The notes beneath the pieces were generated by a model, which did no database searches, had not been told where the DNA came from, and saw only the letters and a program-made list of their open reading frames with translations. From contig CAYHQJ010000001.1 of assembly GCA_964358595.1 (NCBI GenBank), positions 2,955 to 57,303 of the forward strand: DNA of 54,349 nucleotides, given 5' to 3'. The position numbers and the translations under genes are program-made. Positions 6,030 to 41,848 of the stretch are shown piece by piece; the stretch's first letter is position 1, and every line of letters starts with the position of its first letter. The stretch is from an uncultured Gemmatimonadales bacterium. GTDB taxonomy: Bacteria; Gemmatimonadota; Gemmatimonadetes; Gemmatimonadales; JACORV01.

Positions 6030-6036
6030 CGCCGCG

Positions 6037-7359: not shown

Positions 7360-8360
7360 CTCGCCCGCCGTTCCTGGTGACGGCGGCGCCGCACCTTTCC
7401 TCCGCGGACAGCACCCCCCGAATCATGTGGACCGTGGTCGGCGCCCTGGCGCCGATCGTCGTTGCCGCCACCTGGTTCTTCGGCGTGAGCGCGCTGCTGG
7501 TCATCCTGGCGAGCGCCGCGGGCGCCCTCGCCACCGAACGGACGCTCGGGCGCGGCGGCACCCTGCGCGACGGCTCAGCGACGATCACCGGCGTCCTGCT
7601 CGGCCTGACGCTGCCGGCCGGCCTCCCGATGTGGATGGCCTTCGTGGGCGGCGCGTTCGCGATCGGGTTCGGCAAGCTGATCTTCGGCGGCCTCGGCCAG
7701 AACGTGTTCAACCCGGCGCTGCTGGGACGCGCGTTCCTCCAGGCGGCCTTCCCCACCCCGCTCACCACATGGCCCGTCCCCGGCGGGTCCTGGTGGGCGT
7801 TGCGCGGCGACAACTTCGCCCTGCCGCTGATGAGCGCGCGGCCGCTGGACGCCGTCACCGGCGCGACGCCGCTCGGGCTCATGAAGTTCGAGCACCAGGC
7901 CACCGACGTGGTCCCGCTCATGGTCGGCTCCACCGGCGGCTCCCTCGGCGAGACGGCCGGGCTGCTGATCCTGGCGTGCGGCGCCTACCTCGCCGTGCGC
8001 AGCTACCTGAACTGGCGGATCCCGGCGAGCATCCTGCTGACCGTCGCCGCGTTTTCCGAGGGCCTGCACCTGCTCGGTCCCGCCCGGTTCGCCGGCCCGC
8101 TGTTCATGCTCTTCTCGGGCGGCCTCATGCTCGGCGCCGTGTTCATGGCGACCGACATGGTCACGTCGCCCGTGACCCAACGGGGCTGCTGGATCTTCGG
8201 GATCGGGATCGGCATCCTGGTGGTCGTCATCCGCGTGTGGGGAGGACTCCCGGAGGGCGTGATGTACGCCATCCTGCTGATGAACGCGCTCGTGCCGTTC
8301 ATCAATCGCGCCACCCAGCCGCGCGTCTTCGGGACGCGCACCGCCCCGGCGTCCGCGTGA
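7356..8360 (+). CDS. rnfD: Rnf complex subunit D (NqrB/RnfD family membrane protein)
   Basis: In-frame GTG at 7356 overlaps the rnfC stop (GTGA). The protein is polytopic and contains a TGATPLG flavinylation-type motif. The upstream part of ORF 6981-8360 overlies rnfC. Confidence 0.88.
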   Translation: MTRPPFLVTAAPHLSSADSTPRIMWTVVGALAPIVVAATWFFGVSALLVILASAAGALATERTLGRGGTLRDGSATITGVLLGLTLPAGLPMWMAFVGGAFAIGFGKLIFGGLGQNVFNPALLGRAFLQAAFPTPLTTWPVPGGSWWALRGDNFALPLMSARPLDAVTGATPLGLMKFEHQATDVVPLMVGSTGGSLGETAGLLILACGAYLAVRSYLNWRIPASILLTVAAFSEGLHLLGPARFAGPLFMLFSGGLMLGAVFMATDMVTSPVTQRGCWIFGIGIGILVVVIRVWGGLPEGVMYAILLMNALVPFINRATQPRVFGTRTAPASA

Positions 8361-9016
8361 GCACTCCGCCCGCCGCCGAGCACGCCCCGCCGCGGGTGCC
8401 GGCCGCCCGGCTCCTGACGACGCTGGGAACCGGCGGCGCGCTCGCCGGCGCGCTGCTCGTCTTCGCGTACCAGGCCACGCAGCCCACCATCCTCGCCAAC
8501 AAGCGGAAGGAGCTGGCGCAGGCGATCGCGGAGGTGCTCAGGGCGCCGCAGCGCTACGACACGCTCTACGTGTACCGGAACGCGCTCCGGCGCGAGCTGC
8601 CGCCCGGCGTGGACCCGCGCGGCCTGGAGCGCGTCTATCTGGGCTACGGAGCGAACGGCGAGCGGATCGGCTTCGCCGTCGAATCGAACGCGGCCGGCTT
8701 CCAGGACCGCATCGGCCTTATCTTCGGCTACGAAAGCGCCACCGGCCGGCTGCTGGGAATGAAGGTGCTCCAGAGCACCGAGACGCCCGGGCTGGGCGAC
8801 AAGATCTACAAGGACACGGCGTTCGTCGGGCAGTTCAGCCGGGTCGCCGTGCCCCTCCACGGCGTCAAGCGCGGCGCCGGCCGGGGTGACAGCGCCGCGG
8901 TGGACATGATCACCGGCGCCACCATCTCCTCGCGCGCCGTGATCCGCGCGATCAACGACGCACTGGCGCGGCTGCGCCCGCTGCTCGACGGTTACCGGGC
9001 CGAGGCATCGCGATGA
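8357..9016 (+). CDS. rnfG: Rnf complex subunit G (FMN_bind domain)
   Basis: In-frame GTG at 8357 overlaps the rnfD stop (GTGA). It has an N-terminal TM anchor and the ITGATISS covalent-FMN motif. Confidence 0.88.
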   Translation: MSTPPAAEHAPPRVPAARLLTTLGTGGALAGALLVFAYQATQPTILANKRKELAQAIAEVLRAPQRYDTLYVYRNALRRELPPGVDPRGLERVYLGYGANGERIGFAVESNAAGFQDRIGLIFGYESATGRLLGMKVLQSTETPGLGDKIYKDTAFVGQFSRVAVPLHGVKRGAGRGDSAAVDMITGATISSRAVIRAINDALARLRPLLDGYRAEASR

Positions 9017-9669
9017 AAGCGTCGCGGCCCGCCGACGACTTCCTGCGCTGCATCTGGCAGGAGAACCCGGTGCTGGTCCAGGTGCTGGGCCTGTGCCCCA
9101 CCCTCGCCGTCACCAACACGGTCGCCAACGCCGTGGCGATGAGCATCGCGGTGGCTTTCGTGCTCGTGTTCTCGAGCCTGATCGTGTCCTCGCTCAAGCG
9201 GTTCATCCCGAACGAGGTGCGGATCTCGGCGTACATCATGATCATCGCCACGTTCGTGAGCATCGCCGACATGACGCTCCAAGCCACCCAGCCGGTCATC
9301 CACAAGGCGATGGGCCCGTTCGTCCCGCTGATCGTGGTGAACTGCATCATCCTCGCCCGCCAGGAGGCCTTCGCCGCGCGCAACCCCGTCTGGCGCTCGG
9401 TGCTCGACGCCGCGGGCAACAGCGTCGGGTTCACGATCGCCCTCCTGATCATGGGCAGCGTCCGCGAGGTCCTCGGGAGCGGCACGTTCCTCGGGACCAG
9501 CGTCTTCGGCCCGCACTACGAACCGTGGGTGATAATGATCCTCCCGCCGGGCGGGTTCTTCACGCTGGGCTCGCTCGTGCTGGCCGTGAACGTCATCCGC
9601 CGCCGGCGCGTGGCGCGCGCCGGGGTCCCGGCGCTCCCGGTGCGGTCCGAGACGAAGGAAGCGGCCTGA
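9013..9669 (+). CDS. rnfE: Rnf complex subunit E (NqrD/RnfE family)
   Basis: The ORF-track start ATG 9013 overlaps the rnfG stop (ATGA). It carries the VLGLCPTLAVT motif and is polytopic. Confidence 0.92.
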   Translation: MKASRPADDFLRCIWQENPVLVQVLGLCPTLAVTNTVANAVAMSIAVAFVLVFSSLIVSSLKRFIPNEVRISAYIMIIATFVSIADMTLQATQPVIHKAMGPFVPLIVVNCIILARQEAFAARNPVWRSVLDAAGNSVGFTIALLIMGSVREVLGSGTFLGTSVFGPHYEPWVIMILPPGGFFTLGSLVLAVNVIRRRRVARAGVPALPVRSETKEAA

Positions 9670-10247
9670 TGGGCGACCTGTTCTGGATCCTGTTCTCGAC
9701 GATGGTGGTGAACAACTTCACCCTCGCGCTGTTCCTCGGGCTGTGCCCGTTCATGGGCGTGTCGAACCGGGTGGATACCGCGCTGCGCATGGGCGCCGCC
9801 AACATTTTCGTCATGACGCTCACGTCGGTCGCCGTGTGGGCGCTCAACACCTTCGTGCTGGCGCACGCGCCCTACCTGCGGCTGATCGCCTTCATCGTCG
9901 TCATCGCCTCGCTGGTGCAGATCGTGGAGATGGTGATCAAGAAGGTGAGCCCCGCGCTGTTCCGCGCGCTCGGCATCTACCTGCCGCTCATCACGACCAA
10001 CTGCGCCATCCTCGGCCTCGCGATCTTCCAGACGACCCGCGGCTACGGCCTCCTCCAGGGACTGTTCTTCGCCATCGGCGGCGGGCTCGGCCTGCTGCTC
10101 GCGCTGGTCCTGATGGCGTCGATCCGGGAGGCCCTCGAGACCGCCGACCTGCCCGACGTGGTCAAGGGCACCGCCCTCGTGCTCCTCATCTCGGGCAGCC
10201 TGTCGCTGGCGTTCATGGGATTCGCCGGCCTGCTGAGTGCCTCGTGA
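9669..10247 (+). CDS. rnfA: Rnf complex subunit A (NqrE/RnfA family)
   Basis: ATG 9669 shares its A with the rnfE TGA (TGATG). Motifs are MGDLFWILFS..., LGLCPFMGVS and TTNCAILG. Confidence 0.9.
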   Translation: MGDLFWILFSTMVVNNFTLALFLGLCPFMGVSNRVDTALRMGAANIFVMTLTSVAVWALNTFVLAHAPYLRLIAFIVVIASLVQIVEMVIKKVSPALFRALGIYLPLITTNCAILGLAIFQTTRGYGLLQGLFFAIGGGLGLLLALVLMASIREALETADLPDVVKGTALVLLISGSLSLAFMGFAGLLSAS

Positions 10248-10423
10248 GGCTGGTCGCCGGTATGCTTGCGGCCGCGGCGCTGTTCGTCGCCGCCGGATAT
10301 GTGGTTTCCAGGAGACGCCGGTCCGCCGCGTGCGACACCTGCCCCGCGGCCGAATCCTGCGACACCGGCGAGCCCCCGTGCCCCGCCGAGGACGAAACGG
10401 AGTCGAGCCATGCACATCGCTGA
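10244..10423 (+). CDS. Small single-TM, four-Cys membrane peptide (NqrM-like / FeoB-associated Cys-rich architecture), 59 codons
   Basis: GTG 10244 overlaps the rnfA stop (GTGA), and the 3' end overlaps the apbE start by 14 nt. The translation is VRLVAGMLAAAALFVAAGYVVSRRRRSAACDTCPAAESCDTGEPPCPAEDETESSHAHR, giving a TM helix, a basic anchor and C-x2-C-x6-C-x6-C. Confidence 0.55.
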   Translation: MRLVAGMLAAAALFVAAGYVVSRRRRSAACDTCPAAESCDTGEPPCPAEDETESSHAHR

Positions 10424-11405
10424 CGTGCCGCGCACACCGACCACCCGTCGCGGCTTCATCGCCCTTGGCGTCGGGGCCCTCGCCGTGGCGGCCGTGCCCG
10501 TCCTCGGGCGCGCTCGGCTGCGCCTGTGGCGCCGCACGCTCCCGGTGATGGGCACCCTGGCCGAGATCGCCGTCGAGGAGCGCGACCCGCGGCGCGCCCA
10601 GGCCGCGCTCGATGCCGCGTTCACCGAGCTGGTGGCCGTCGAGCGCGCGATGACGCGGTTCGACGCTGCCTCCGAGGTGGGTCGCGTGAACCTCGGAGCG
10701 GCGGCCGAGGCCGTCCCGGTGAGCGCGCCGACCGCCGCCGTGATCGGCGCGGCGCTGGCGTGGGCCGAGGCCAGCGACGGCGCGTTCGACCCCGGCCTCG
10801 CGCGGGTCGCGCAGCTGTGGGACGTCACGCACCGGCGCTTGCCGCCACCCGCCCGCGACGTGCGCCACTTCGCGGGACGCCGGCTCTACCGCGCGCTGGA
10901 CCTCGACACCTGGCGCGGACGGCCGGCGGTGCGGCTCACCGATCCGGACGTGGCGATCGACCTCGGCGGGATCGCCAAGGGCTACGGCGCGGACCGCGCC
11001 GCGGACGCGCTGCGCGCGCGCGGAATCCGCCGGGCACTCGTGAACGTCGGCGGCGAACTGTACGCCATTGGCGACTCCCCCGAAGGCGACCCGTGGCGCA
11101 TCGGCATCCAGTCACCGTTCGAGCCGGAGCGGATGATGGGGGAGATGACGGTGAGCGACGGCGCGGTCGCCACGTCGGGCGACTACCTCCAGTACTTCGA
11201 GTACCGCGGCGTGCGCTACCACCACCTGCTGGACCCGATGACGGCCGCCCCGCGCGTGTGCCACATGCACAGCATCACCGTCGTCGCGGCCACCGGCATG
11301 CAGGCGGACGCGGCGACCACGGCGCTCTTCGGCATGCCTCCCGCGGCCGCTGCGGGCGTGCTCCAGGTGGTGGCGCCCGGCGCCAGGGTGGAGCGCCGGA
11401 TCTAG
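10410..11405 (+). CDS. apbE: FAD:protein FMN transferase ApbE, with a Tat-type signal peptide
   Basis: An internal ATG (MHIADVPRTPTTRRGFIALGVGALAVAA) gives a twin-arginine leader. DLGGIAKGY and ATSGDY are ApbE motifs. It lies downstream of its flavinylation substrates RnfG and RnfD. Confidence 0.88.
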   Translation: MHIADVPRTPTTRRGFIALGVGALAVAAVPVLGRARLRLWRRTLPVMGTLAEIAVEERDPRRAQAALDAAFTELVAVERAMTRFDAASEVGRVNLGAAAEAVPVSAPTAAVIGAALAWAEASDGAFDPGLARVAQLWDVTHRRLPPPARDVRHFAGRRLYRALDLDTWRGRPAVRLTDPDVAIDLGGIAKGYGADRAADALRARGIRRALVNVGGELYAIGDSPEGDPWRIGIQSPFEPERMMGEMTVSDGAVATSGDYLQYFEYRGVRYHHLLDPMTAAPRVCHMHSITVVAATGMQADAATTALFGMPPAAAAGVLQVVAPGARVERRI

Positions 11406-22582: not shown

Positions 22583-23091
22583 GGCGTCACCCGGGCGGGA
22601 GCCTCAGGCACGTCCCGCAACCACACGATGTTCACCCGGTGGCCGGCACGCGCAGTGGAGACGCTCGCCGAGTCCCACCCCGGCAGCGGCACCCACTCGA
22701 GGTAGCCCATCGGCGTGAGCGTGGCCCCCTGCGCGCTGCTGTCCGTCATGGTCGGCGGGAAGTAGCCGATCACCCGCACCGCGGCGAGCGTCGTGTCCCG
22801 GTGCCGCGCGCTGTCGGCGATCGCCTGCATCGCCATCCGCGCCGCGGCCCGTCCCTGGTCCACGCCGATGATCGCGTGCACGATCAGCCGCGCCACGCCG
22901 GCCGCGACCGTCTGCCGCTCGCGGTCGAACACCTGACGCGACGACGGCGGCGCGCTGTCGGGCCACGCCCGGAAGCTGAATTCCGCTCCGCCCTGCGAGG
23001 CGTTCGGCTGCCCCGGGGGCGAACCGCGCTCGACGCTGCACGCCCCGAGCGCCACCATGGCGATCGCCAGCCACTCAGTCCTGGAACGCAT
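22579..23091 (-). CDS. Hypothetical lipoprotein (170 aa) embedded between hisS and proS
   Basis: The signal peptide has a lipobox-like ...AMVALGAC. I recognise no family. The gene is tightly coupled on both sides, with a 17-nt overlap with the hisS end and a GTGA overlap with the proS start. Confidence 0.65.
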   Translation of the reverse strand: MRSRTEWLAIAMVALGACSVERGSPPGQPNASQGGAEFSFRAWPDSAPPSSRQVFDRERQTVAAGVARLIVHAIIGVDQGRAAARMAMQAIADSARHRDTTLAAVRVIGYFPPTMTDSSAQGATLTPMGYLEWVPLPGWDSASVSTARAGHRVNIVWLRDVPEAPARVTP

Positions 23092-24349
23092 AGTCCCTTC
23101 GCAGATGCTCCAGCGTGACCCGCGTTTCCGCGCCCGTGCCGAGAACGCGAACGACCGCTTCGCCGGCCCCGCGCTCCGCCGGCCCCACCACGATCGCGTG
23201 GCGCGCCCCGCGCGCCGCCGCCAGCTCCAGCTGCTTGCCGACCGCCTGCTTCTTCAGAGCGAACTCGACGCGCAGGCCGCGGTCCCGCAACGCGTGGGCG
23301 AGTCCCAACACGGCGTCGCGATCGTCCTCCGTCACCATCACCACGAAAACGTCCGCCGACGGCAGCGCCGGCGGCGCACCCTCGCGCTCGGCGATCAGCT
23401 CGCCAAGCACCACATCGCCCATCCCGAAGCCGACGCACGGCAGGTTCACCCCGCCCAGCTGCTGGAGCAAGTCGTCGTAGCGCCCGCCGCCACAGATCGC
23501 CCGCAGCGAGCGCTGCGCGTCGAACAGCTCGAAGACGATCCCGGTGTAGTACGCCAGACCGCGCACGACCCGGAAATCCACGTCCACGAACTCGCCGAGC
23601 CCCATCGCCCCGAGGTGCGCCACGCACCCCCGGAGCGCTCCCGCCGCGGGCAGCTCCAGCAGCGGCGCCGGATCGCCGAGCGCCGCGGCGAACTGCCGGA
23701 CGCGGTGCGCCCGCGCCGCGTCCTCCACGAAGATCTCGCCGAGCGCTTCCTCGGCCGCCTCCTTCGACTTCTCGTAGCGGTCGAACGCGGTCAGCACTCT
23801 CGGGACCTCGGCCTCGAGCACGCCCAGCCCCTCGGTCAGAGCCGCGGCCAGCACCCGCCGGTCCGAGAGCCGCACCCGCACGTCCGACGGCCCGAAGCCC
23901 AGAGCGCGCACGACGTCGATTGCCGCGGCGATCACCTCGGCGTCGGCGAGCGGTCCGGCCTCGCCGATGATGTCCATGTTGAGCTGGAAATGCTCCCGCA
24001 GCCGGCCCCGCTGCTGCCGCTCGTAGCGGAACAGCTGCGGGATGCTGAACCAGCGGATCGGCTTCTTGAGCTGCTGGGCGCGCGCGGCCACCATGCGCGC
24101 CAGGGTCGGCGTCATCTCGGGCCGCAGCGCCACCTGGCGGCCGCCCTTGTCCAGGAACGCGTAGAGCTGCTCGACAATCTCCTCGCCGCTCTTCTGCGTG
24201 TACAGCTCGAGCGGCTCCAGCGGCGGCCCGTCGTACTCCTCGAACCCGTAGCGCGCGGCGACCTCGCGCCACACCCCGAGAATGCGACGTCGCCTCGCGA
24301 GGGCGTCGGGATAAGCATCGCGAAACCCTGGCAGGGCGACGAAGCGCAT
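23075..24349 (-). CDS. hisS: Histidine--tRNA ligase
   Basis: Motifs are GFRDAYP, LRPEMT, RYERPQ-like FRYERQQRGRLREHFQ and GGGRYD. Confidence 0.93.
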   Translation of the reverse strand: MRFVALPGFRDAYPDALARRRRILGVWREVAARYGFEEYDGPPLEPLELYTQKSGEEIVEQLYAFLDKGGRQVALRPEMTPTLARMVAARAQQLKKPIRWFSIPQLFRYERQQRGRLREHFQLNMDIIGEAGPLADAEVIAAAIDVVRALGFGPSDVRVRLSDRRVLAAALTEGLGVLEAEVPRVLTAFDRYEKSKEAAEEALGEIFVEDAARAHRVRQFAAALGDPAPLLELPAAGALRGCVAHLGAMGLGEFVDVDFRVVRGLAYYTGIVFELFDAQRSLRAICGGGRYDDLLQQLGGVNLPCVGFGMGDVVLGELIAEREGAPPALPSADVFVVMVTEDDRDAVLGLAHALRDRGLRVEFALKKQAVGKQLELAAARGARHAIVVGPAERGAGEAVVRVLGTGAETRVTLEHLRRDYAFQD

Positions 24350-24358
24350 CTAGATAAT

Positions 24359-25576
24359 CTAGCCGAGCGGCGCGAGGCCGGGCAAGCACGCCATCGCGTC
24401 GCCGACGGTGTGGAACGAGCCCGTGACGAGCACCGTGCGCGCCGTCGCGGACGCCACATGGAGCGCGTTCCCGAAATCCCCCTCGACGCGGGCGGGAATG
24501 CCCTGCCCGCGCGCCCACTCCGCCGCCACCTCGAGCGACCACGCGCGCCCCTCCGGCGCGCTCGGTGCGCGCGTCAGCACCAGCAGGTCCACCGCCGAGG
24601 CCAGGAGCGTCAGCATCTCCCGCCACGCCTTGTCCCGCAGGATCGAGACGACCGCGAACACCGGCCGCGGAAGCGGGGATCCTGCCAGCGCCGCCACCAG
24701 CGCCCGCATCCCGTCCGGGTTGTGCGCTACGTCGAACAGCCACCGCCCGCGCCGATCGAAGCGCCCCGGCAGCCGCGCCACCTTCAGCCCGAGCGCAATC
24801 GCTCCCTCGTCCGGCCGGAACCGCCCCGGGAGCTGCTGCGCCAAGGCGACCGCGAGCGCGGCGTTGGCCCGCTGGTGCGGGCCTACCAGCCCGAGCTCGA
24901 GGCCGGCGGCGCCCGCGGGATCCACCCGCATGAACTCCGCCCCGAGCCCCCGCGCCGCGGCTCCGAGCACCGCGGCCAGCGCGTCGTTCGGCTCCGTGGT
25001 GAGGAACGGCACCCCGGGTTTGGCGATCCCGGCCTTCTCCCGGGCGAACCCCTCGAGCGAATCGCCGAGGTAATCGGTGTGCTCGAGCGCGATCCGCGTC
25101 ACACCGCAGGCGAGCGGCGCGATCACGTTGGTCGCGTCGAGCCTCCCGCCGAGCCCGACCTCAATCACCGCGACGTCCACGCCCCGCGCCGCGAAGTCGG
25201 CGAACGCCACGGCCGTCGTGATCTCGAAGAACGAGGCCTGACGCGCCAGGGCGACCTCCTCGAGCCGCGCCACCCACGCCGCGACCGCCGCCTCGGCAAC
25301 CGCCACGCAATCCACCTGGATCCGCTCGCAGAACGACACCAGGTGCGGCGACGTGTAGAGCCCCACGCGCAGCCCCGCCGCGCGCAGGATCGCCGCGAGC
25401 ATGGCGGCGGTGCTCCCCTTCCCGTTGGTGCCCCCTACGTGCACCGTAGCGTAGTGCCGCTCCGGATGGCCGAGCACGTCGAGCAGCGCCCCGGTCGTCT
25501 CGAGGCCCCACTTGATACCGCCGGCAGTTCTTGGGAAGAGGAAGCGACAGGCGTCGGCGAAGCTGCGGACCGTCAG
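24359..25576 (-). CDS. folC: Bifunctional folylpolyglutamate synthase / dihydrofolate synthase
   Basis: The GGTNGKGS P-loop is present. The first canonical start is GTG 25477, but the in-frame upstream translation (SFADACRFLFPRTAGGIKWGLETTGALLD) is clearly the conserved FolC N-terminus. The only plausible initiator is CTG 25576, which overlaps the accD TGA (CTGA). The minimal canonical model is 24359-25477. Confidence 0.8.
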   Translation of the reverse strand: MTVRSFADACRFLFPRTAGGIKWGLETTGALLDVLGHPERHYATVHVGGTNGKGSTAAMLAAILRAAGLRVGLYTSPHLVSFCERIQVDCVAVAEAAVAAWVARLEEVALARQASFFEITTAVAFADFAARGVDVAVIEVGLGGRLDATNVIAPLACGVTRIALEHTDYLGDSLEGFAREKAGIAKPGVPFLTTEPNDALAAVLGAAARGLGAEFMRVDPAGAAGLELGLVGPHQRANAALAVALAQQLPGRFRPDEGAIALGLKVARLPGRFDRRGRWLFDVAHNPDGMRALVAALAGSPLPRPVFAVVSILRDKAWREMLTLLASAVDLLVLTRAPSAPEGRAWSLEVAAEWARGQGIPARVEGDFGNALHVASATARTVLVTGSFHTVGDAMACLPGLAPLG

Positions 25577-26436
25577 GAGGCGAGCACTCCGTCCGTCTCG
25601 GGTTGGTTGAGGAGCAGCCGCACCAGCCGGCTGGTCGTCGAGCGTAGATGGCTGCGCGGCACGACGGCGTCAATCATCCCGTGCTCGAGCAGGAACTCGG
25701 CGGTCTGGAACCCCTCGGGGAGGTCCTGGCCGATCGTCTGCTTGATCACGCGCGGCCCCGCGAACCCGACCACCGCGCCCGGCTCGGCGATGATCACGTC
25801 CCCCTGCATAGCGTACGAGGCAGAGACGCCGCCGGTCGTCGGGTTCGTCACGATCGAGACGAACGGGATCCCGTGCTCCTTGAGCTGCGCGATCACCACG
25901 CTGGTCTTGGCCAGCTGCATGAGGGAGAGCACACCCTCCTGCATCCGCGCGCCGCCCGACGCCGACACGATGACCAGGGACTCCTTCTGCGCCAGCGACC
26001 GCATCGCCATCCGGGCGATCTTCTCACCCACCACCGACCCCATCGAGCCACCCATGAACTTGAAGTCCATCACCCCGAGCTGGATCGGGACCCCGTCCAG
26101 CGTCGCCGAGCCGGTGTGGATGGCGTCGTTCGTCCCCGCCTTCTTGAAGGAGGCGGCCAAGCGGTCCCTGTACGAGTCGAACGCGAGGACGTCTACGGAG
26201 CGCAGGTTGGTGTCGGCCGGCTTGAAGCTGTCGTCGTCGGACAGCAGGGAGATGTAGACGGCCGCCCCGACGCGCTTGTGGTTGCCGCAGCCCGGGCAGA
26301 CCTCGAATGCCCGCGCGAAGTTCTCCCGCACGTCCACATGACCGCACTCCTCGCACTTCTCCCATACGTCGGCCGGGATTTCCAGCCGCTCGCGTTGGGA
26401 CGTCCGAGGACGCCGATCCTTTCGGAACCAGGCCAT
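25573..26436 (-). CDS. accD: Acetyl-CoA carboxylase carboxyltransferase beta subunit
   Basis: The start is taken at MAWFRKDRR (ATG 26436). The zinc ribbon is CEECGHVDV...CPGCGNH. Other motifs are FMGGSMG and SGGARMQEG. Confidence 0.9.
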   Translation of the reverse strand: MAWFRKDRRPRTSQRERLEIPADVWEKCEECGHVDVRENFARAFEVCPGCGNHKRVGAAVYISLLSDDDSFKPADTNLRSVDVLAFDSYRDRLAASFKKAGTNDAIHTGSATLDGVPIQLGVMDFKFMGGSMGSVVGEKIARMAMRSLAQKESLVIVSASGGARMQEGVLSLMQLAKTSVVIAQLKEHGIPFVSIVTNPTTGGVSASYAMQGDVIIAEPGAVVGFAGPRVIKQTIGQDLPEGFQTAEFLLEHGMIDAVVPRSHLRSTTSRLVRLLLNQPETDGVLAS

Positions 26437-35504: not shown

Positions 35505-36962
35505 ATGATCTCGAGACAGGACCTGAACCCCAACGCCCTGCGCGCCCAGTACGCCGTGCGCGGCCCCATCGTGGCGCGGGCACAGGAGCTCGAGGAGCAG
35601 GGCCGCAGGATCGTCTACTGCAACATCGGCAACCCGCAGGCCCTGCAGCAGAAGCCCACGACCTACCTCCGGCAGCTCCTCAGCCTGGTCGAGTACCCCG
35701 CGCTGCTGGACGATCCGCGCGCCGCGGCGCACTATCCGCCGGACGTGGCCGCCGGGGCGCGGGCGGTCCTCGAGCGCCACCCGGCGGGCACCGGCGCGTA
35801 CTCCCAGAGCTGCGGGATCCCGTTCATCCGGCAGGCGGTGGCCGACTTCATCGCGCGGCGCGACGGCATCAGCGCCGACCGGGATCACGTCATCCTGACC
35901 GACGGCGCGAGCCGCGCGATCGAGCTGGTCATCATCGCGCTGCTCAAGGGTCCCACCACGGGGATCATGATCCCGGTGCCACAGTACCCGCTCTACAGCG
36001 CCGTCATCGCCCTCTACGGCGGGCGGGAGGTCGACTACTACGTCGATGAGGCGCGCCACTGGCAGCTCTCCGAGGCAGCGCTGACCGACGCCTTCACCCG
36101 CGCGACGCACGAGGGCGTGACGCCCGTCGCCCTCGTCGTGATCAATCCCGGCAACCCGACCGGTGCCGTCCTCACCTACGACACCATCCGCATGGTCGTG
36201 GGATTCGCGAGGCGCCACGGCCTCGCGATCATGGCCGACGAAGTCTACCAGGAAAACGTGTACGCGAGCGACCGGAAGTTCTTCTCGTTCGCGAAGGCGC
36301 TGCACGACCTCGGCGAGCGCGACGTCTCACTGTTCAGCTTCCACTCGGTCTCCAAGGGCTTTCTCGGCGAATGCGGCCACCGCGGCGGCTACGTCGAGAT
36401 GCGCAACGTACCCGCCGACGTCGTCGCCGAGCTCGCGAAGCTGCAGTCCATCGCTCTATGCGCCAACGTGCCGGGCCAGCTCGCTACCTACGTGATGGTC
36501 GCGCCGCCCCGGCCCGGCGAAGCGAGCTACGCCGTGTTCACCGCCGAACGCGATGCCATCCTGCACGCCCTGAAGGCGAAGGCCGAGCTGCTCGACCGGG
36601 GCATCAACTCCATCGCGGGGATGTCGCTGGAGATGCCGCAGGGGGCGATGTACGGCTTCGTGCGCTTCGAGCTGCCGAGCGAGCCCGGCGTGGACATCGA
36701 GCGGATGACGCCGGAGGAGCGGCGCGTATGCGAGGCGCGCCGCGATTCGGACTACTGCCTCGCCCTGCTGGAGGAGACGGGGATCTGCGTGGTGCCCGGC
36801 TCCGGCTTTGGTCAGCAGCCGGGCACCTTCCACTTCCGCACCACGTTCCTGCCACCGATCGAGGAGATCGAGGAGCTGGTGCGCACGCTGAAGACCTTCC
36901 ACGAGCGGTACGTCACTATTGGGCCAGGATCTTCTCCGCCTCCTCCTGGTCCACTTCCATGA
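35505..36962 (+). CDS. Alanine aminotransferase-like class I/II PLP aminotransferase (eukaryote/GPT-like type)
   Basis: AGGAG SD at 35491. Motifs are LNPNALRAQYAVRGPIVARAQELE, NPGNPTG and SVSKGFLGECGHRGGY (PLP Lys). The last 47 nt overlap the convergent gene. Confidence 0.85.
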   Translation: MISRQDLNPNALRAQYAVRGPIVARAQELEEQGRRIVYCNIGNPQALQQKPTTYLRQLLSLVEYPALLDDPRAAAHYPPDVAAGARAVLERHPAGTGAYSQSCGIPFIRQAVADFIARRDGISADRDHVILTDGASRAIELVIIALLKGPTTGIMIPVPQYPLYSAVIALYGGREVDYYVDEARHWQLSEAALTDAFTRATHEGVTPVALVVINPGNPTGAVLTYDTIRMVVGFARRHGLAIMADEVYQENVYASDRKFFSFAKALHDLGERDVSLFSFHSVSKGFLGECGHRGGYVEMRNVPADVVAELAKLQSIALCANVPGQLATYVMVAPPRPGEASYAVFTAERDAILHALKAKAELLDRGINSIAGMSLEMPQGAMYGFVRFELPSEPGVDIERMTPEERRVCEARRDSDYCLALLEETGICVVPGSGFGQQPGTFHFRTTFLPPIEEIEELVRTLKTFHERYVTIGPGSSPPPPGPLP

Positions 36963-38496
36963 CGTAGGGGATGCCGCTGATCGCGGCGGCCTCGCGCGTG
37001 AGGGCCGCGATGTCGCCGCGCTCCACGTACCGCAGCGCGAACTTGCGCGCGCCGGCCATCAGCTGGCGCAGGCCCTGCGCGAGGCGCTGGTAGTACGTGT
37101 AGTACCCGATCGCGCCCGCCGGCAGCTTGTCGAACCGGTCGCCGTACTTCTGGCGCAGCTCCGGCGCGGTGACGAAGATCTCGTCCAGCGACGTGCCGAA
37201 GCGCTCGATGTAGATGGGCAGGCTCTGCTGCGCGATGGCGTTGCCGATGGTCTTGGCGACCATGGCCGCCGCGAGCGGTGCCCGCGCCATCGCGATGAGC
37301 CGGACGAACGGGGCGCCCAGCGCGAGGCCCTTGAAGATCTGGTCCTCGAAGGTGAAGCCGCCCGCCAGCGCGACGGCCGGGACGAACCGGCCCCTGGTCG
37401 CGAGACGCTGCAGGTAGTCCCGGAGCAGCGAGTGCAGCTCGATGCCGGGAATGCCCCACTCGTTCATCATTCGCCACGGGCTCATCCCGGTGCCGCCGCC
37501 CGCCGCGTCCACCGTGAGCAGGTCGAGCTCGGCCAGCGAGGCGAACTTCACGGCGCGCGCGAGGTCCACCGGGCGGTAGGCGCCCGTCTTGAGGAAGACG
37601 TGCTTGGCGCCGAGGTTGCGCAGCATCTCCACGCGCTTCAGGAACGAGTCCTGGTCCACCATGCCGACGCGCGAGTGCCGCTCGAACTCGTGGAAGCTGC
37701 CGAGCCGGAACGCCTCGATGACGTGCGGGCTCGACGGATCGGGGAGCACGATGTAGCCGCGGCGCTGGAGCTCCTGCGCCTTGGCGAGGTCCCGGATCTT
37801 CACCTCGCCGCCGATATCCTTGGCGCCCTGGCCCCACTTCAGCTCGACGCTGGTGACGCCCAGCTTGGTGAGGGCGTACTCCTGCACGCCGGCCTTCGTG
37901 TCTTCGACGTTGGCCTGGACGACGACGTCGCCGTAGCCGTCCTCCTGCCAGTCGCGGAAGCAGCGGACCCGCCACTCCAGGTCCGGGCCCGAGATCACCT
38001 TGCCGTTGCCGTACTTCGCGTCCATGTCCATGCCGACGACGTTCTCGCCGATAGCAATCATCGTCCCGGTGATCGCGGCGCCCGCCGCCAGAGCGGGCCA
38101 GTTGTTCGTCGCCACGTTGGTCGAGCCCATCGCGGCCAGCGTGAACGGCAGCCGGCTCTTGATCCCCGGCTCGCGGCCGATCGTGACCTCGAGATCCACG
38201 TTCGGGAACAGGGCGCGGTCGCTATCCGCCTCGATCCCCCAGGCCCCCGTCGCCCGGCCCAGGATCGTGAAGTGCGACAGGTCCACCGGGTAGTCCTTCT
38301 GGGACGCCGTAGTGATGATCCCGAAGGGCTGCGGGTAGATCATCTCCGTGCCGCGGTACGCGGACTTCCCGATCTCGCACATCCCGATGCAGCCGTCGAT
38401 GCAGGTGGCGCACATCCCGCTGAGCGGGCTGATCGAGTCCTCGGTGCGGTTCTTGGTCAGCGTGGCGGCGGACGAATTGAGACGCGTGAAGCTCAT
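36916..38496 (-). CDS. Glutamate synthase FMN-domain (GltB domain 2 / Glu_synthase family) protein with an N-terminal Cys cluster; no amidotransferase domain
   Basis: ATG 38496 is preceded by GGGAGA. Motifs are CATCIDGCIGMCEIG, ELKWGQGAKDIGGE, FLKTGAYRP and LTVDAAGGGTGMSPW. 526 aa. Confidence 0.85.
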   Translation of the reverse strand: MSFTRLNSSAATLTKNRTEDSISPLSGMCATCIDGCIGMCEIGKSAYRGTEMIYPQPFGIITTASQKDYPVDLSHFTILGRATGAWGIEADSDRALFPNVDLEVTIGREPGIKSRLPFTLAAMGSTNVATNNWPALAAGAAITGTMIAIGENVVGMDMDAKYGNGKVISGPDLEWRVRCFRDWQEDGYGDVVVQANVEDTKAGVQEYALTKLGVTSVELKWGQGAKDIGGEVKIRDLAKAQELQRRGYIVLPDPSSPHVIEAFRLGSFHEFERHSRVGMVDQDSFLKRVEMLRNLGAKHVFLKTGAYRPVDLARAVKFASLAELDLLTVDAAGGGTGMSPWRMMNEWGIPGIELHSLLRDYLQRLATRGRFVPAVALAGGFTFEDQIFKGLALGAPFVRLIAMARAPLAAAMVAKTIGNAIAQQSLPIYIERFGTSLDEIFVTAPELRQKYGDRFDKLPAGAIGYYTYYQRLAQGLRQLMAGARKFALRYVERGDIAALTREAAAISGIPYVMEVDQEEAEKILAQ

Positions 38497-38509
38497 AGGT
38501 GTTCTCCCG

Positions 38510-39229
38510 CTAGCGCGCAGTGGGTACCGCGCGGATTCGCTTGCGCGCGTCGGCGCGGAACGGACCCGCCAGCTCGCAGGCGTGGCACGGGTCAAGGAAG
38601 CACATCGCGTTGTCGTAGCTCTGCAAGCACACAGTCGCGAAATTGACACAGCCGTTGCACAGCGTGGTATCCGCCGCCGCGCCCTGGCAGCGCAGCTCGC
38701 ACACGGGACAGATGTAGAGACACGCGCCGCACTGGCGGCACAGCTCGCTGGTCATGTCGAACGGCCGGGCGACGCGTCGGTTGAGGCCCCGGCCGGCGAA
38801 GCCGATGGCGCCCGCCATCATCTGCTCGGCACACATCCGCACGCACAGCCCGCACTGGATGCAGGTCTCGTGTTTCGGCTCGTACCGGCACTGCCGCACG
38901 CCGGCGGCCGAGGCCAGGTCCTGGATCCGCTTGGACTGGGGCGAGGTCGCGACGTACAGCTCGAGCAGCAGCCGGCGGGCACGCTCCACGCGGGCGGAGT
39001 GCGTCCAGACCGTCAGCCCGTCTTCTGCCGGACAGGTGCACGACGCCTGGAGGCTCCTCCCGTTCCCGCGGGAGACCTCCACGAGGCAGAGACGGCAGGC
39101 TCCGTACGGCGTGAGCCCTTCGTCGTGACAGAGGGTGGGGATCGGTATGCCGTAGAGGCGCGCAACGTCCAGCACGCTGCTGCCACGCTCGACCTCAACC
39201 TCGGTCCCGTTGATCGTCAGCTTCGGCAC
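38510..39229 (-). CDS. NuoG/HydA-N-terminal-like Fe-S protein ([2Fe-2S] plus [4Fe-4S] clusters, with no catalytic domain)
   Basis: MPKLTINGTEVEVE...TLCHDEGLTPYGACRLCLVEV is a plant-type 2Fe-2S fold as in NuoG. CIQCGLCVRMC and CRQCGACLYICP follow, with extra C-terminal Cys residues. Confidence 0.85.
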   Translation of the reverse strand: MPKLTINGTEVEVERGSSVLDVARLYGIPIPTLCHDEGLTPYGACRLCLVEVSRGNGRSLQASCTCPAEDGLTVWTHSARVERARRLLLELYVATSPQSKRIQDLASAAGVRQCRYEPKHETCIQCGLCVRMCAEQMMAGAIGFAGRGLNRRVARPFDMTSELCRQCGACLYICPVCELRCQGAAADTTLCNGCVNFATVCLQSYDNAMCFLDPCHACELAGPFRADARKRIRAVPTAR

Positions 39230-39239
39230 GGGAGACTCC

Positions 39240-41093
39240 TCAGCTCACCAGCACGGCATCGGGTTGGCAGACCTCGAGACACGCACCGCACCTGATGCAC
39301 TTGGCCGAGTCGATGCGGTGCGGCTGGTCCTTCTCGCCCAGGATCGCCTCGGACGCGCACACCCGCACGCAGGCGTGACAGCCGTCACACAGCGTGGGCT
39401 CGATGGCGTAGCGAATCAGCTCGCGACAGACCTTGGCGGGGCAGCGCTTCTCGCGAACGTGCGCCAGATACTCGTCCCGGAAGTACCGCAGCGTGGACAA
39501 CACCGGATTGGCCGCCGTCTGGCCGAGACCGCACAGCGAGGACTCCTTGATCATCCAGCCGGCGTCCTCCAGCAGCGCGAGGTCGGACTCGCTGCCCTTG
39601 CCTTGCGAGATGCGGGTGAGGATGCCCCGCAGCCGCTGGGTCCCCTCGCGGCACGGGAAGCACTTCCCGCAGGACTCCTCTTCCAGGAACTCCATGAAGT
39701 AGCGGGCGACATCCACCATGCAGGTGTCTTCGTCCATGACTACGATGCCGCCCGAGCCCATCATGGATCCGGCCCCGGTGAGGGCCTCGTAATCGATGGG
39801 CAGATCGATCAGGCTCGCCGGTATGCAGCCGCCGGAGGGCCCGCCGATCTGGATCGCCTTGAGCGCCTTGCCCTTGGGAATGCCCCCGCCGATCTCGTAG
39901 ATCATCTCGCGCAGCGTGATGCCCATCGGGACTTCCACCAGACCGGTGTTGGTGATCTTCCCCACCAGCGAGAAGACCATGGTGCCCTTGCTGCGCTCCG
40001 TCCCGATCGACGCGTACCACTCGGCGCCGCGGTTGACGACGACCGGGACGCTGGCCCACGTCTTCACGTTGTTGATGACCGTCGGCTTGCCCCAGAGTCC
40101 CTTCTGGACCGGGTACGGCGGACGGGCGTGGGGCTCGCCGACGCGCCCCTCGATAGAGGCGATGAGCGCGGTCTCCTCACCGCAGACGAACGCGCCCGCA
40201 CCCTGGACGACGTGGATCCGGAAGCTGTGACCCGATCCCAGGATGTCGTCGCCCAGGAGTCCGTACTGCTCCGCCTGGGTAAGCGCCGCGCGCAGATTCT
40301 CGACGGCGAGAGGGTATTCCGCGCGCACGTAGATGAAGCCCTCGCTGGCGTCCAGGGCGTAGGCGCCGATGATCATCCCTTCGATGACGCTGTGGGGATT
40401 GCCCTCCAGGAGGCTGCGATCCATGAACGCGCCGGGATCGCCCTCGTCGGCGTTGCAGATGAGGTAGTGCGGCCGGACCGGATTGCCCCGCAGCGCCTGC
40501 CACTTCACCCCGGTGGGGAAGCCGGCGCCGCCGCGGCCGCGCAGGCCGGAGCGCGAGACCATGTCCACGACCTCGGGCGCGGACAGCGTCGCCAACGCCT
40601 TGGCCAGCGCCGCGTAGCCGCCGACGCGGACATAGTCGCGGATGTCCTTGGGATCGATCTGCCCGTTGTTGCCGAAGAGAATACGTTGCTGGCGCCTGTA
40701 GAACGGCACCTCATCCTCGTGGAGGACGCGCGCGCCGGAGACCGGGTCCTTGTAGAGCAGGCGCTCCACGGGCTTGCGGCCGTTGCTGACGCTGGCCACG
40801 AGCGCCGCGGCGTCGCGGGGGCCGACGCCGTTGTAGAACACCTTCTCCGGCCACACGACCATCACCGGCCCCTTCTCGCAGAAGCCGTGGCAACCCGTAC
40901 TCTTGACCTCGACCGCGTCCTGCAGCCCCTGGCGTTCCAGCTCCCGGCGCAGCGACTGCAGCACCTCCTGCGCGCCTGAAGCGGTGCAGCCGCTGCCGGC
41001 GCACACCGAGAGGCAGGGCCGGCCGCTGCCACCCGGTTCCCGGCAGGTTGTCCTCAGCGCCTCCAGTTCCTGCGGTGAGCGAAGCGTCAGCAT
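39240..41093 (-). CDS. NuoF-like NADH-binding flavoprotein with an N-terminal thioredoxin-like [2Fe-2S] domain and a C-terminal 2x[4Fe-4S] domain (HydB/HndC/BfuB architecture)
   Basis: Start ATG 41093 (MLTLRSPQEL), 1 nt after the nuoE-like stop. Motifs are GLRGRGGAGFPTGVKW (FMN/NADH), SCGKCFPCREG and SLCGLGQTA (N3 cluster). The C-terminus has CDGCHACVRVC and CIRCGACLEVC. Confidence 0.9.
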   Translation of the reverse strand: MLTLRSPQELEALRTTCREPGGSGRPCLSVCAGSGCTASGAQEVLQSLRRELERQGLQDAVEVKSTGCHGFCEKGPVMVVWPEKVFYNGVGPRDAAALVASVSNGRKPVERLLYKDPVSGARVLHEDEVPFYRRQQRILFGNNGQIDPKDIRDYVRVGGYAALAKALATLSAPEVVDMVSRSGLRGRGGAGFPTGVKWQALRGNPVRPHYLICNADEGDPGAFMDRSLLEGNPHSVIEGMIIGAYALDASEGFIYVRAEYPLAVENLRAALTQAEQYGLLGDDILGSGHSFRIHVVQGAGAFVCGEETALIASIEGRVGEPHARPPYPVQKGLWGKPTVINNVKTWASVPVVVNRGAEWYASIGTERSKGTMVFSLVGKITNTGLVEVPMGITLREMIYEIGGGIPKGKALKAIQIGGPSGGCIPASLIDLPIDYEALTGAGSMMGSGGIVVMDEDTCMVDVARYFMEFLEEESCGKCFPCREGTQRLRGILTRISQGKGSESDLALLEDAGWMIKESSLCGLGQTAANPVLSTLRYFRDEYLAHVREKRCPAKVCRELIRYAIEPTLCDGCHACVRVCASEAILGEKDQPHRIDSAKCIRCGACLEVCQPDAVLVS

Positions 41094-41094
41094 G

Positions 41095-41598
41095 TCACCC
41101 TCGTCGAGTCGGTTCCGCTGCGCTCGCATCCGCTTGGCGACGGTATTTCTTCAGCAGTCCGGGCACCTTGGTTTGGGTGAGGTGGGCATGGACGTTCTTG
41201 TCCACGCGGGCCACCGGCGCCAGGCCGCAGCAGCCGATGCACCGCACGGTCTCCACCGTGAACTGCAGGTCGTGTGTGGTGCCCGGCACCGGGAGCTTCA
41301 GGTCCCGCAGCACGCGGTCCAGCACCCGCGGCGCCCCGCGGACGTGGCAGGCGGTCCCAAGGCACACCTGGATGACGTGCCTGCCGAGCGGTGTCAGGCT
41401 GAAGCACCGGTAAAACGTTGCGACCTGGTAGACCTCCGGCAGCGGCACGCGCAGCTTCCGCGAGACCCTGCGCAGCAGGCCTTCGGGCAAATACGAGTAG
41501 ACCGCTTGGATTTCCTGGAGGATGGGAATGAGGTTGGCGCGCCGGTCGTCGAACTCGCCCAGAGTTTCTTCTACGATGGCGCTCTCGACGTAGGTCAT
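41095..41598 (-). CDS. NuoE-like thioredoxin-like [2Fe-2S] subunit (HydC/HndA/BfuC-like)
   Basis: Motifs are LIPILQEIQ, VCLGTACHVRG and CIGCCGLAP. 167 aa. Confidence 0.9.
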   Translation of the reverse strand: MTYVESAIVEETLGEFDDRRANLIPILQEIQAVYSYLPEGLLRRVSRKLRVPLPEVYQVATFYRCFSLTPLGRHVIQVCLGTACHVRGAPRVLDRVLRDLKLPVPGTTHDLQFTVETVRCIGCCGLAPVARVDKNVHAHLTQTKVPGLLKKYRRQADASAAEPTRRG

Positions 41599-41803
41599 CG
41601 TGGCAGTATCCTTGCGCGATGGCTCCGGACAACGGAGCCCGCAAGTCCCGCGCCTCCCTGGCGCCGCGGCGCTACGGCGGCATCATCGGGCTGTCCCTTC
41701 GGCCGTGTCACGTGCTGCGGCGGCCGGCCCCAGCGGCAATGTGGCGATTTGTCGCAAGCGGGTCGGTGGGACTGGGACGCCGTGGATGGCTCGTAAGCGG
41801 CGC

Positions 41804-41825
41804 CGCGTGAAGGTCCTTTCACGCG
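41804..41825 (-). terminator. Hairpin downstream of the deacetylase gene; a possible terminator without a U-tract
   Basis: An 8-bp stem (cgcgtgaa / ttcacgcg) with loop ggtcct, about 25 nt after the stop at 41849. It is followed by a 200-nt untranslated region before the nuoE-like gene. Confidence 0.3.
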
Positions 41826-41848
41826 CCCCCACCGAACCCCCGACCGGG

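Follow-up and report, generated by a model that had tools for sequence, protein, structure and literature searches.

A candidate Type-2 Bfu enzyme with a glutamate-synthase-like FMN subunit in an uncultured Gemmatimonadales bacterium

Results

Gene organization and conservation of the cluster

A stretch of 54,349 nucleotides (nt) from an uncultured Gemmatimonadales bacterium (GenBank assembly GCA_964358595.1, contig CAYHQJ010000001.1; hereafter the window) was analysed around a cluster of four minus-strand genes located at 41598-36916. The genes encode, in the direction of transcription, a NuoE/HydC-like protein (BfuC; 41095-41598, 167 amino acids (aa)), a NuoF-like protein of the HydB type (BfuB; 39240-41093, 617 aa), a small BfuA without a catalytic domain (38510-39229, 239 aa) and a stand-alone flavin mononucleotide (FMN) TIM-barrel protein (36916-38496, 526 aa), which is the candidate catalytic subunit and is referred to as the FMN protein. 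The encoded complex is, in our best reading of the sequences, a Type-2 enzyme of the Bfu family, and the FMN protein is a relative of the synthase domain of glutamate synthase (GltS).

The four open reading frames (ORFs), with the intergenic gaps of 1, 10 and 13 nt given in the initial annotation, were confirmed in the ORF list and by the gene calls of the public record, which gave identical lengths of 167, 617, 239 and 526 aa. The stop codon of the BfuC gene is separated by 1 nt from the ATG of BfuB, that of the BfuB gene by 10 nt containing GGAG from the GTG of BfuA, and that of the BfuA gene by 13 nt containing GGGAG from the ATG of the FMN gene, both of the purine-rich elements being Shine-Dalgarno-like. 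The third-codon-position GC was 0.84-0.93 in the three of the four ORFs that passed a codon-position GC filter, comparable to that of other genes in the window; the BfuA gene had been dropped from this list by an overlap rule. The public record is a contig of 57 kb, and the named genomes nearest to it were the Gemmatimonadetes metagenome-assembled genomes (MAGs) RIFCSPLOWO2_02_FULL_71_11 and GWC2_71_9.

Homologous loci were collected by scanning one genome per species with 10 closer sequences; 80 loci were fetched and 4 were added from metagenome contigs, giving 84 in total. When the loci with enough upstream DNA were counted (for BfuA, at least 800 nt), BfuA immediately preceded the FMN gene, in the same orientation, in 79 of 79 loci, and BfuB and BfuC were located upstream in 61 of 62 and 50 of 53 loci, respectively. 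The initial annotation had proposed that the catalytic domain of the A subunit was replaced by a separate protein resembling the GltS synthase domain, and the invariable position of the FMN gene directly downstream of BfuA agreed with this proposal. The order C-B-A-FMN was retained in about 20 phyla of bacteria and archaea, with examples from Terriglobia, Planctomycetota, Zixibacteria, Bacteroidota, Syntrophales and Thermoplasmata, while the flanking genes varied from locus to locus. As four independent genes would not keep such an arrangement, the comparison supports well the view that they constitute one system and are not chance neighbours.

BfuB and BfuC were both missing from one locus only (L048, 2651-7971), in which a TraG/TrwB-like coupling protein and an Mrr-like endonuclease occupied their place and BfuA was truncated to 160 aa. 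This locus is likely an interrupted one, produced by insertion of a mobile element or by a chimeric assembly.

The FMN gene was detected in at least 583 species genomes. Among 1.8 billion proteins, its family comprised 1079 clusters of 50% identity at E<1e-3 and 176 at E<1e-30, and it was narrow yet abundant, with at least 8000 protein clusters at 90% identity. Sequence conservation was unusually strong: the FMN proteins of Gemmatimonadota and Terriglobia shared 74-82% identity, and identity to those of all other bacteria and of the archaea Thermoplasmata and Methanobacteriota was 65-70%. The cluster is widespread in uncultured lineages of soil, sediment and bioreactors, and a second homologue search, from a Syntrophorhabdus protein, found no cultured organism carrying it. 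Public annotations named the protein only as 'FMN-binding glutamate synthase family protein' or 'glutamate synthase domain-containing protein 2'. Some contigs with clusters more than 90% identical to that of this Gemmatimonadota genome were labelled Dehalococcoidia (e.g. HLB24592-HLB24594), and a Terriglobales-like contig with 82% identity (L006) was labelled Chlamydiota; the discordant labels suggest mis-binned MAG contigs or very recent transfer.

BfuC, BfuB and BfuA

The BfuB, BfuC and BfuA subunits have been defined by sets of InterPro domains (PMC9304861), and the products of the first three genes carried these sets in the form of the equivalent Pfam models. BfuC showed the NuoE-type thioredoxin-like [2Fe-2S] domain (PF01257, E 5e-44), as had been annotated, and its gene ends 1 nt before the start of BfuB; the HoxE and NuoE models of NCBIfam also matched it, both below their cut-offs. 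BfuB was composed of an N-terminal thioredoxin-like [2Fe-2S] domain that is a remnant of PF01257 (40791-41024), the FMN/NADH site (PF01512; 40044-40559), an SLBB domain (PF10531), an N3-type [4Fe-4S] domain (PF10589; 39459-39713) and a C-terminal ferredoxin-like domain for two [4Fe-4S] clusters matched by the Fer4 dicluster models (39255-39404), all on the minus strand like the other cluster features given below. The description of this protein as a 617-aa NuoF-like flavoprotein with additional [2Fe-2S] and 2x[4Fe-4S] domains at its N- and C-termini was thus borne out by Pfam.

The best match of BfuB in the PDB was the subunit 7t2r_B of Acetomicrobium mobile NiFe-HydB, which aligned over the full length with 811 bits (E 5e-243). 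Six further solved bifurcating BfuBs, namely 7q4v_B and 8a6t_B (FeFe-HydB), 9mqx_B (Wor-BfuB, E 4e-219), 9n5u_B and 9bov_B (NfnB) and 7p5h_B, scored 647-768 bits. The scores against the non-bifurcating FdsB, Nqo1 and NuoF were 300-417 bits, about half of those values, with E ~1e-120 for complex-I NuoF. Bifurcating members are reported to share the AFM and GGPSG signatures, which non-bifurcating NuoF homologues lack (PMC12018979). Both were present in BfuB (GAFM at 221 and GGPSG at 417), together with the [2Fe-2S] site at the N-terminus and the 'B2' Cys/His site RCPAxxC (RCPAKVC at 550). CxxCxxC motifs were located at 475, 569 and 599, and all of the cluster-binding cysteines, including the N-terminal ones, aligned with those of solved HydB.

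BfuA contained a [2Fe-2S] domain (PF13510; 38996-39220) and a 2x[4Fe-4S] domain (Fer4_7; 38699-38872), the cysteines of which were conserved in 58 of 58 homologues, followed by a C-terminal tail with eight cysteines from C177 to C218 (38576-38701). In total 20 conserved cysteines were counted, each kept in 54-58 of the 58 homologues, and the eight in the tail were among them. The initial annotation had regarded this protein as the cluster-binding N-terminus of NuoG/HydA. The lack of a catalytic domain was confirmed, but the His-ligated cluster domain of NuoG (PF10588) was not detected by the Pfam scan, the protein was rather, in all probability, of the small Type-2 BfuA type, and the Cys-rich tail had gone unmentioned. 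The other models listed for checking (PF01257, PF01512, PF10589, PF13510 and PF01645) were all found in the cluster.

The closest solved relative of BfuA was 9mqx_A (E 1.5e-33), the 247-aa A subunit of the tungsten-containing aldehyde oxidoreductase Wor-Bfu (PMC12318220). In Type 2 Bfu enzymes, a small BfuA without the A3 and A5 clusters feeds one or more separate catalytic subunits (PMC12018979, PMC9304861). The window complex is a probable member of this type: its BfuA is 239 aa long, gave no PF10588 match, resembles the Type-2 Wor-BfuA most closely and is always followed by the FMN subunit.

A HoxEFU diaphorase shares the E/F/U layout with the three genes and has a U subunit of about 240 aa, and HoxE and HoxU were indeed the top NCBIfam models for BfuC and BfuA. 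The scores, however, were 135 bits against a cut-off of 224 for HoxE and 105 bits against a cut-off of 333 for HoxU, and BfuB possesses the C-terminal 2x[4Fe-4S] domain typical of HydB, unlike HoxEFU. The identity as HoxEFU was rejected on these scores. Among the window ORFs that were searched with Pfam, none encoded a hydrogenase domain or subunit, those of HoxYH type included. As judged from the domain sets, PDB scores, aligned cysteines and Bfu motifs, genes 1-3 are a genuine HydABC/Bfu-type module, as had been annotated, and neither a complex-I nor a Hox fragment.

The FMN protein

The Pfam search of the FMN protein detected PF01645 alone, with 48.4 bits (gathering score 20.4; E 1e-12) at residues 279-400. 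This match spanned only profile positions 185-303 of 369, and that in relatives of the protein reached positions 57-309. In the alignment with E. coli GltB, AAMG.../IGENV of the FMN protein corresponded to AAMS.../SGEGGE, LKWGQGAK to IKVAQGAK, the FMN-phosphate motif GGGTGMSP (37477-37500) to GGTGASP and AGGF..ED..K to DGGL....K. The QGAK...R motif (37759-37830) was in register with GltB: Q223-G-A-K226 corresponded to Q934-G-A-K937 in a remote pairwise alignment, and R246 showed by residue numbering the same +20 spacing as R957 of GltB. From the structures of ferredoxin-dependent GltS (Fd-GltS), we take the Lys of QGAK and the Arg at +20 to contact 2-oxoglutarate. E151, Q223, K226, R246 and H274 as well as the glycine-rich FMN motif showed no variation among 73 homologues, which came from many phyla.

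The N-terminal region carries the motif CxxCxxxCxxxC (C29-x2-C32-x3-C36-x3-C40; 38377-38412), which was also invariant in all of the 73 homologues. C179 is the only other cysteine of the protein, and the matching segment contained none of the [3Fe-4S] cysteines of GltS (GCxxxxxCxxxxC in E. coli GltB). When E. coli GltB and GltD domains were used as tblastn queries, no amidotransferase, central, GXGXG or GltD sequence was detected in the window, so that the absence of the amidotransferase, GXGXG and GltD noted initially was confirmed. The amidotransferase, central and GXGXG domains of GltB were likewise not found by tblastn with E. coli queries in the 84 loci, nor were they hit by Pfam.

These results indicated at the level of sequence that the FMN protein is a remote stand-alone homologue of the FMN (synthase) domain of GltS. 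Of the initial description as a GltB domain-2 protein with an N-terminal four-cysteine cluster, the motif and PF01645 were present, but the relationship to GltB proved to be a remote one. The protein is not a canonical glutamate synthase, as three defining features of that enzyme were looked for and each was missing, but it plausibly works like the synthase half of glutamate synthase.

The structure predicted by AlphaFold2 had a predicted local distance difference test score of 83 and a predicted template modelling score of 0.86, the N-terminal 28 residues being poorly modelled. Foldseek with this model retrieved FMN-dependent TIM barrels broadly, including glycolate and lactate oxidases, IDI-2 and the GltS structures 1ofd and 7mfm at similar E-values. 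The likeness to alpha-hydroxy-acid oxidases was one of fold only, with query-normalised TM-scores of 0.42-0.47 and 10-15% identity, and PF01070 (alpha-hydroxy-acid oxidase/dehydrogenase) gave no hit. An identity as a hydroxy-acid oxidase or IDI-2 was rejected at the sequence level on account of the missing PF01070 match and the GltS-type motifs.

When the PDB was searched with the FMN sequence or with a family profile, the sole matches were TIM barrels of de novo design, such as DeNovoTIM13 and sTIM11, with summed E-values down to 2.5e-11. Residues 278-311 (window 37564-37665), which form one beta-alpha unit (GMVDQDSFLKRVEMLRNLGAKHVFLKTGAYRP), resemble the fourfold unit of these designs. This single unit was matched four times, and the apparent homology was rejected as a repeat artefact; such a match is a trap for automated annotation.

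Variants of the electron-input module

BfuB occurred in two forms among the homologous loci. In about 28 loci, the window included, it was about 617 aa long with the ferredoxin-like C-terminus, whereas in about 50 loci it was about 1180 aa long and the ferredoxin-like domain was swapped for Fer4_20 and Pyr_redox_2. The fused module in the latter is homologous to GltD over the full length, sharing 33-36% identity with the E. coli protein. This form, exemplified by L026 (3760-7308), L028, L038 and L062, is that of most anaerobe relatives. When the FMN subunits were placed in a neighbour-joining tree, the two forms interleaved, even within phyla; the domain swap therefore occurred repeatedly while the catalytic subunit was left unchanged. 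By analogy, the swap echoes the ferredoxin-dependent and NADPH-dependent forms of glutamate synthase.

Family members more distantly related to the FMN protein (up to 50% identity) stood alone without Bfu genes. One protein of 800 aa (P0253; L086 6001-8403) had a 2x[4Fe-4S] and FrhB/FdhB (F420-type) portion fused to the same FMN domain. Its neighbours (L086 2355-5585) were two genes for Glu/Leu/Phe/Val-type dehydrogenases (GDH) and one for a small ferredoxin, with PylC and PylD genes upstream. FrhB-fused GltS-like proteins were reportedly discussed by Susanti and Mukhopadhyay in 2012 as putative F420-dependent glutamate synthases of archaea. P0253 shares with the window protein the FMN domain with the N-terminal Cys motif, but would receive its electrons through an F420-type flavoprotein in one chain, in contrast to the separate NADH/ferredoxin module BfuABC. 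The FMN protein seems to behave as a catalytic cassette, the N-terminal cluster of which would take electrons from interchangeable donors.

Nitrogen-related and regulatory neighbours

GDH genes lay beside the cluster or close to it in 12 loci; glutamine synthetase was encoded nearby in 6 loci, and NrpR in 2 loci. A histidine kinase was encoded upstream in 20 loci and a sigma-54-dependent response regulator of NtrC type in 22. Of the 17 regulator loci examined, 13 had a -24/-12 sigma-54 promoter (at most two mismatches; background 0.115 per kb) in the interval that separates the operon from the regulator. None of these NtrC-type, NrpR or histidine-kinase regulators was encoded in the window, and no convincing sigma-54 site was detected upstream of the window operon on its strand. 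The upstream intergenic region of 250 nt (41599-41848), lying between the start of the NuoE-like gene and a polysaccharide-deacetylase gene, is the presumed promoter region of the operon.

In a bacterial MAG of Smithella (L026), an NrpR-type regulator was encoded directly downstream of the cluster (9665-10666); next came genes for a histidine kinase and a sigma-54 response regulator, and PII and Amt were at the far end of the locus. NrpR is a nitrogen repressor characterised in methanogens. In addition, a conserved small ORF of about 90-150 aa was found between the sigma-54 regulator and BfuC in about 22 loci (e.g. L057 1177-1542 and L062 2727-3182), near the predicted -24/-12 promoter. It had no Pfam hit, and may encode a small subunit or a chaperone, or be an artefact of ORF calling.

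Other genes in the window

The FMN gene is overlapped by 47 nt by a convergent gene on the plus strand (35505-36962) for a class I/II aminotransferase (PF00155, E 1e-37), which is AlaAT-like; the NCBIfam AlaAT model scored 183 bits, under its cut-off of 534. The overlap had been taken initially as a sign of a role in amino-acid/2-oxoacid metabolism. This argument failed, as an aminotransferase adjoined the cluster in none of the 84 homologous loci, two of them having weak matches (24-25% identity) more than 5 kb away. The gene was rejected as a member of the system on this count, and it is probably not part of it. The interpretation given in the initial annotation was accordingly supported in its main line, and not in the aminotransferase argument or in the 'NuoG N-terminus'.

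Elsewhere in the window (492-11405, plus strand), a 1845-aa PFOR-type 2-oxoacid:ferredoxin oxidoreductase (POR_N, PFOR_II, POR, Fer4 and TPP_C) is encoded, directly followed by RnfD, an Rnf-Nqr membrane subunit and ApbE. The presence of the PFOR-type enzyme and Rnf genes indicates that ferredoxin turnover is part of the host metabolism. The first ~220 and the last ~350 residues of the PFOR-type enzyme had no Pfam hit, and NifJ-type enzymes are about 600 aa shorter. A further ORF of 1066 aa (23057-26257, plus strand) had no Pfam match and a third-position GC of 0.81, below that of the surrounding genes. It encodes a large protein of a novel kind, or else it is spurious and lies opposite real genes.

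Discussion

Proposed reaction and its energetics

The gene structure, domain content, family membership, synteny and ordered motifs described above were observed in the sequences themselves. From these we propose, tentatively and with somewhat less than even confidence, that the cluster encodes a Type-2 Bfu complex which couples NADH and ferredoxin to a GltS-type reductive amination of 2-oxoglutarate with free ammonia. The initial proposal of an ammonia-using glutamate synthase, or of an enzyme for an unknown imine, is strengthened by the conservation of the GltS active-site motifs, by the about 50 loci in which BfuB is fused to a true GltD homologue and by the recurrence of GDH, glutamine synthetase, NrpR and sigma-54/NtrC genes in the neighbourhood.

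The four gene products would form one soluble complex, in which the small BfuA wires the BfuBC core to the separate FMN subunit. NADH would bind at the FMN of BfuB and ferredoxin would dock on its C-terminal 2x[4Fe-4S] domain, both inputs meeting at the flavin-cluster site of BfuB/BfuC. The electrons would next pass through the [2Fe-2S] and 2x[4Fe-4S] clusters of BfuA, perhaps also its Cys-rich tail, and then through the C29-C40 cluster of the FMN subunit to its FMN, which would yield L-glutamate by reducing the 2-iminoglutarate that 2-oxoglutarate forms with free ammonia. Free ammonia is the presumed nitrogen source because no glutaminase is present. Physical assembly, substrate, use of free ammonia, direction and bifurcation are all predictions of this scheme.

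The glutamate couple has a standard potential of about -0.12 to -0.14 V, which becomes about 30 mV lower for each tenfold fall in ammonium or in the 2-oxoglutarate/glutamate ratio, and the textbook potentials of NADH and ferredoxin are -0.28 V and -0.5 V. At micromolar ammonium in a glutamate-rich cytoplasm, the couple would lie at about -0.35 V, between NADH and ferredoxin. Such a mid-potential zone is where the characterised Bfu hydrogenases, formate dehydrogenases and Nfn operate (PMC9304861). Confurcation would then allow ammonia assimilation without the ATP cost of glutamine synthetase. In the reverse direction, glutamate oxidation would yield NADH and reduced ferredoxin if 2-oxoglutarate were held very low.

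Several observations weigh against this proposal. As the standard potential of the glutamate couple is well above that of NADH, confurcation is sensible only at low ammonium, and free ammonia is a poor substrate for the synthase site of canonical GltS. Between the FMN subunit and characterised GltS the relationship is remote: the family hidden Markov model overlapped E. coli GltB over only about 80 residues, PDB searches with the sequence and with the family profile retrieved no GltS, and Foldseek placed glycolate/lactate oxidases and IDI-2 slightly above GltS. The roles assigned to Q223, K226 and R246 rest on the remote pairwise alignment and on the GltS structures. Neighbours related to nitrogen metabolism occurred in a minority of loci only, and no enrichment of PII/Amt was seen, these being found in a single locus. 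In the GltD-fused form, which has no ferredoxin-like domain, the scheme with NADH plus ferredoxin cannot hold unchanged.

Alternative explanations

The remoteness of the FMN subunit leaves appreciable room for an alternative, doubtful on balance but serious, in which the same Type-2 Bfu complex acts on another substrate, such as a different 2-oxo or 2-imino acid, a 2-hydroxy acid, an enoate or some other metabolite, and the likeness to GltS reflects shared ancestry of FMN barrels. The family forms a narrow, distinct clade (176 clusters at E<1e-30, as above) with no member of known function, the structural search ranked 2-hydroxy-acid oxidases and IDI-2 at the top with E-values like those of GltS, and most loci had no nitrogen-related neighbour. 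On the other hand, the sole Pfam hit was PF01645 and not PF01070, the GltS-specific QGAK...R and GGTGxSP were invariant, the His motif of hydroxy-acid oxidases was not seen at the matching position, and the GltD fusion together with the recurrent GDH and glutamine synthetase adjacency, including that of the FrhB-fused form, points to glutamate.

An enzyme that does not bifurcate was also considered. BfuBC would then serve as an NADH input, as in NAD-dependent formate dehydrogenases or HoxEFU, to a GltS-like reductase using NADH only (or ferredoxin only), and the additional clusters would be a wire or vestigial. By textbook values, the glutamate couple lies above NADH under standard conditions, so that NADH alone would suffice; besides, the Hox models ranked first for genes 1 and 3, and many of the hosts (Gemmatimonadota, Terriglobia) do not belong to the classical strict anaerobes. 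Nevertheless, the Hox scores were far under the cut-offs, the scores of BfuB against FdsB/NuoF were about half of those against solved bifurcating enzymes, and BfuB retains all the features that set bifurcating members apart from non-bifurcating ones, namely the N-terminal [2Fe-2S], the C-terminal 2x[4Fe-4S], AFM, GGPSG and RCPAxxC. Moreover, the ferredoxin-like domain was either strongly conserved or replaced by a second nucleotide-binding module, which argues that a second redox partner matters. We regard the non-bifurcating enzyme as unlikely.

Slightly less likely still is a ferredoxin-generating glutamate synthase following a logic like that of Bcd-EtfAB, in which NADH is the sole donor, 2-iminoglutarate takes the high-potential branch and the second electron goes to ferredoxin. 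From textbook potentials this reaction would be allowed thermodynamically at ample ammonium, the ferredoxin-using enzymes of the genome (PFOR-type, Rnf) would benefit from it, and third substrates of high potential have been proposed for Rub-Bfu and Nuo-Bfu (PMC9304861). No characterised Bfu enzyme operates in this manner, however, the third substrates being of mid potential (H2, formate, NADPH) or low potential (aldehyde). The sigma-54/NtrC, NrpR and glutamine synthetase neighbours furthermore suggest induction under nitrogen limitation, where the couple is no longer one of high potential.

It is very improbable that an orphan BfuABC and an independent ferredoxin-dependent FMN enzyme merely lie side by side: the distant homologues without Bfu genes show that the FMN module can use other electron donors, but the order, strand and short gaps were conserved over about 20 phyla while the flanks varied, the small BfuA has no catalytic domain of its own, and the single exception was the locus cut by the TraG/Mrr insertion.

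Relation to known systems

The known systems near to the proposed complex with NADH, ferredoxin and a GltS-like catalytic subunit include Wor-Bfu (WorABCSL) of Acetomicrobium mobile (PDB 9mqx), the prototype of Type 2, in which a BfuBC core and a small BfuA of about 240 aa with [2Fe-2S] and 2x[4Fe-4S] clusters likewise serve a separate catalytic subunit. The catalytic partner in the present case is a single GltS-synthase-type FMN/[4Fe-4S] protein instead of the tungstopterin SL subunits, and BfuA bears the family-specific tail of eight cysteines. With the bifurcating hydrogenases NiFe-HydABCSL (7t2r) and FeFe-HydABC (7q4v, 8a6t, 7p5h), the likeness extends over the full length of BfuB, its cofactor cysteines and the AFM/GGPSG/RCPAxxC signatures, whereas the window BfuA is truncated to the cluster-binding part and is accompanied by no hydrogenase in the Pfam-scanned ORFs.

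GltS, represented by GltBD, Fd-GltS (1ofd) and Bacillus subtilis GltAB (7mfm), has in common with the FMN protein the PF01645 FMN TIM barrel, QGAK...R, the glutamate at 151 and GGTGxSP, and relatives of the window cluster fuse a real GltD homologue into the complex. Unlike GltS, the window protein has no amidotransferase, central or GXGXG domain and no [3Fe-4S] cysteines, possessing the N-terminal four-cysteine motif instead, and in place of GltD, absent from the window, the BfuABC module is the putative electron supply. The Nfn-Bfu transhydrogenases NfnABC/StnABC (9n5u, 9bov, 8oh5) combine a BfuBC core with a GltD/NfnL-like module for FAD and two [4Fe-4S] clusters, as the GltD-fused relatives do. 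In Nfn-Bfu, however, this module is part of BfuA and constitutes the catalytic end, while in the relatives described here it is carried on the C-terminus of BfuB and the FMN subunit follows BfuA; the window BfuB has no GltD module. HydB with a GltD/GltA-like domain has also been noted in archaeal hybrid hydrogenases (PMC11216029).

The third reactions published for the Bfu family involve H2, formate, NADPH, F420, aldehyde, CO, pyruvate, aryl-CoA, quinone and peroxide (PMC9304861). The published catalogue contains no partner of the glutamate-synthase type, and 17 of its 57 BfuB clades have no assigned function (PMC9304861). In the full-text literature, the search of which did not extend to subscription-only papers, we found no prior description of this cluster. 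What appears to be new here is a probable Type-2 Bfu enzyme with a new, GltS-synthase-like catalytic partner.

Implications

The cluster would give one of the unknowns of the Bfu family a testable substrate, and the repeated swap between a ferredoxin-like domain and GltD on BfuB offers a natural experiment on the low-potential branch of Bfu enzymes. A broader possibility, which we consider doubtful at present, is that these genes, carried by at least 583 species of about 20 phyla, represent a hitherto overlooked way of assimilating ammonia independently of ATP, in which electrons of NADH and of reduced ferredoxin (for the GltD-fused form, NADPH) would be pooled for the direct reductive amination of 2-oxoglutarate, bypassing glutamine synthetase, at ammonium levels where glutamate dehydrogenase fails. 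If glutamate is indeed the product, amino-acid synthesis would join the third reactions of Bfu enzymes, and electron bifurcation would be linked to nitrogen assimilation as an ATP-free alternative to GS-GOGAT.

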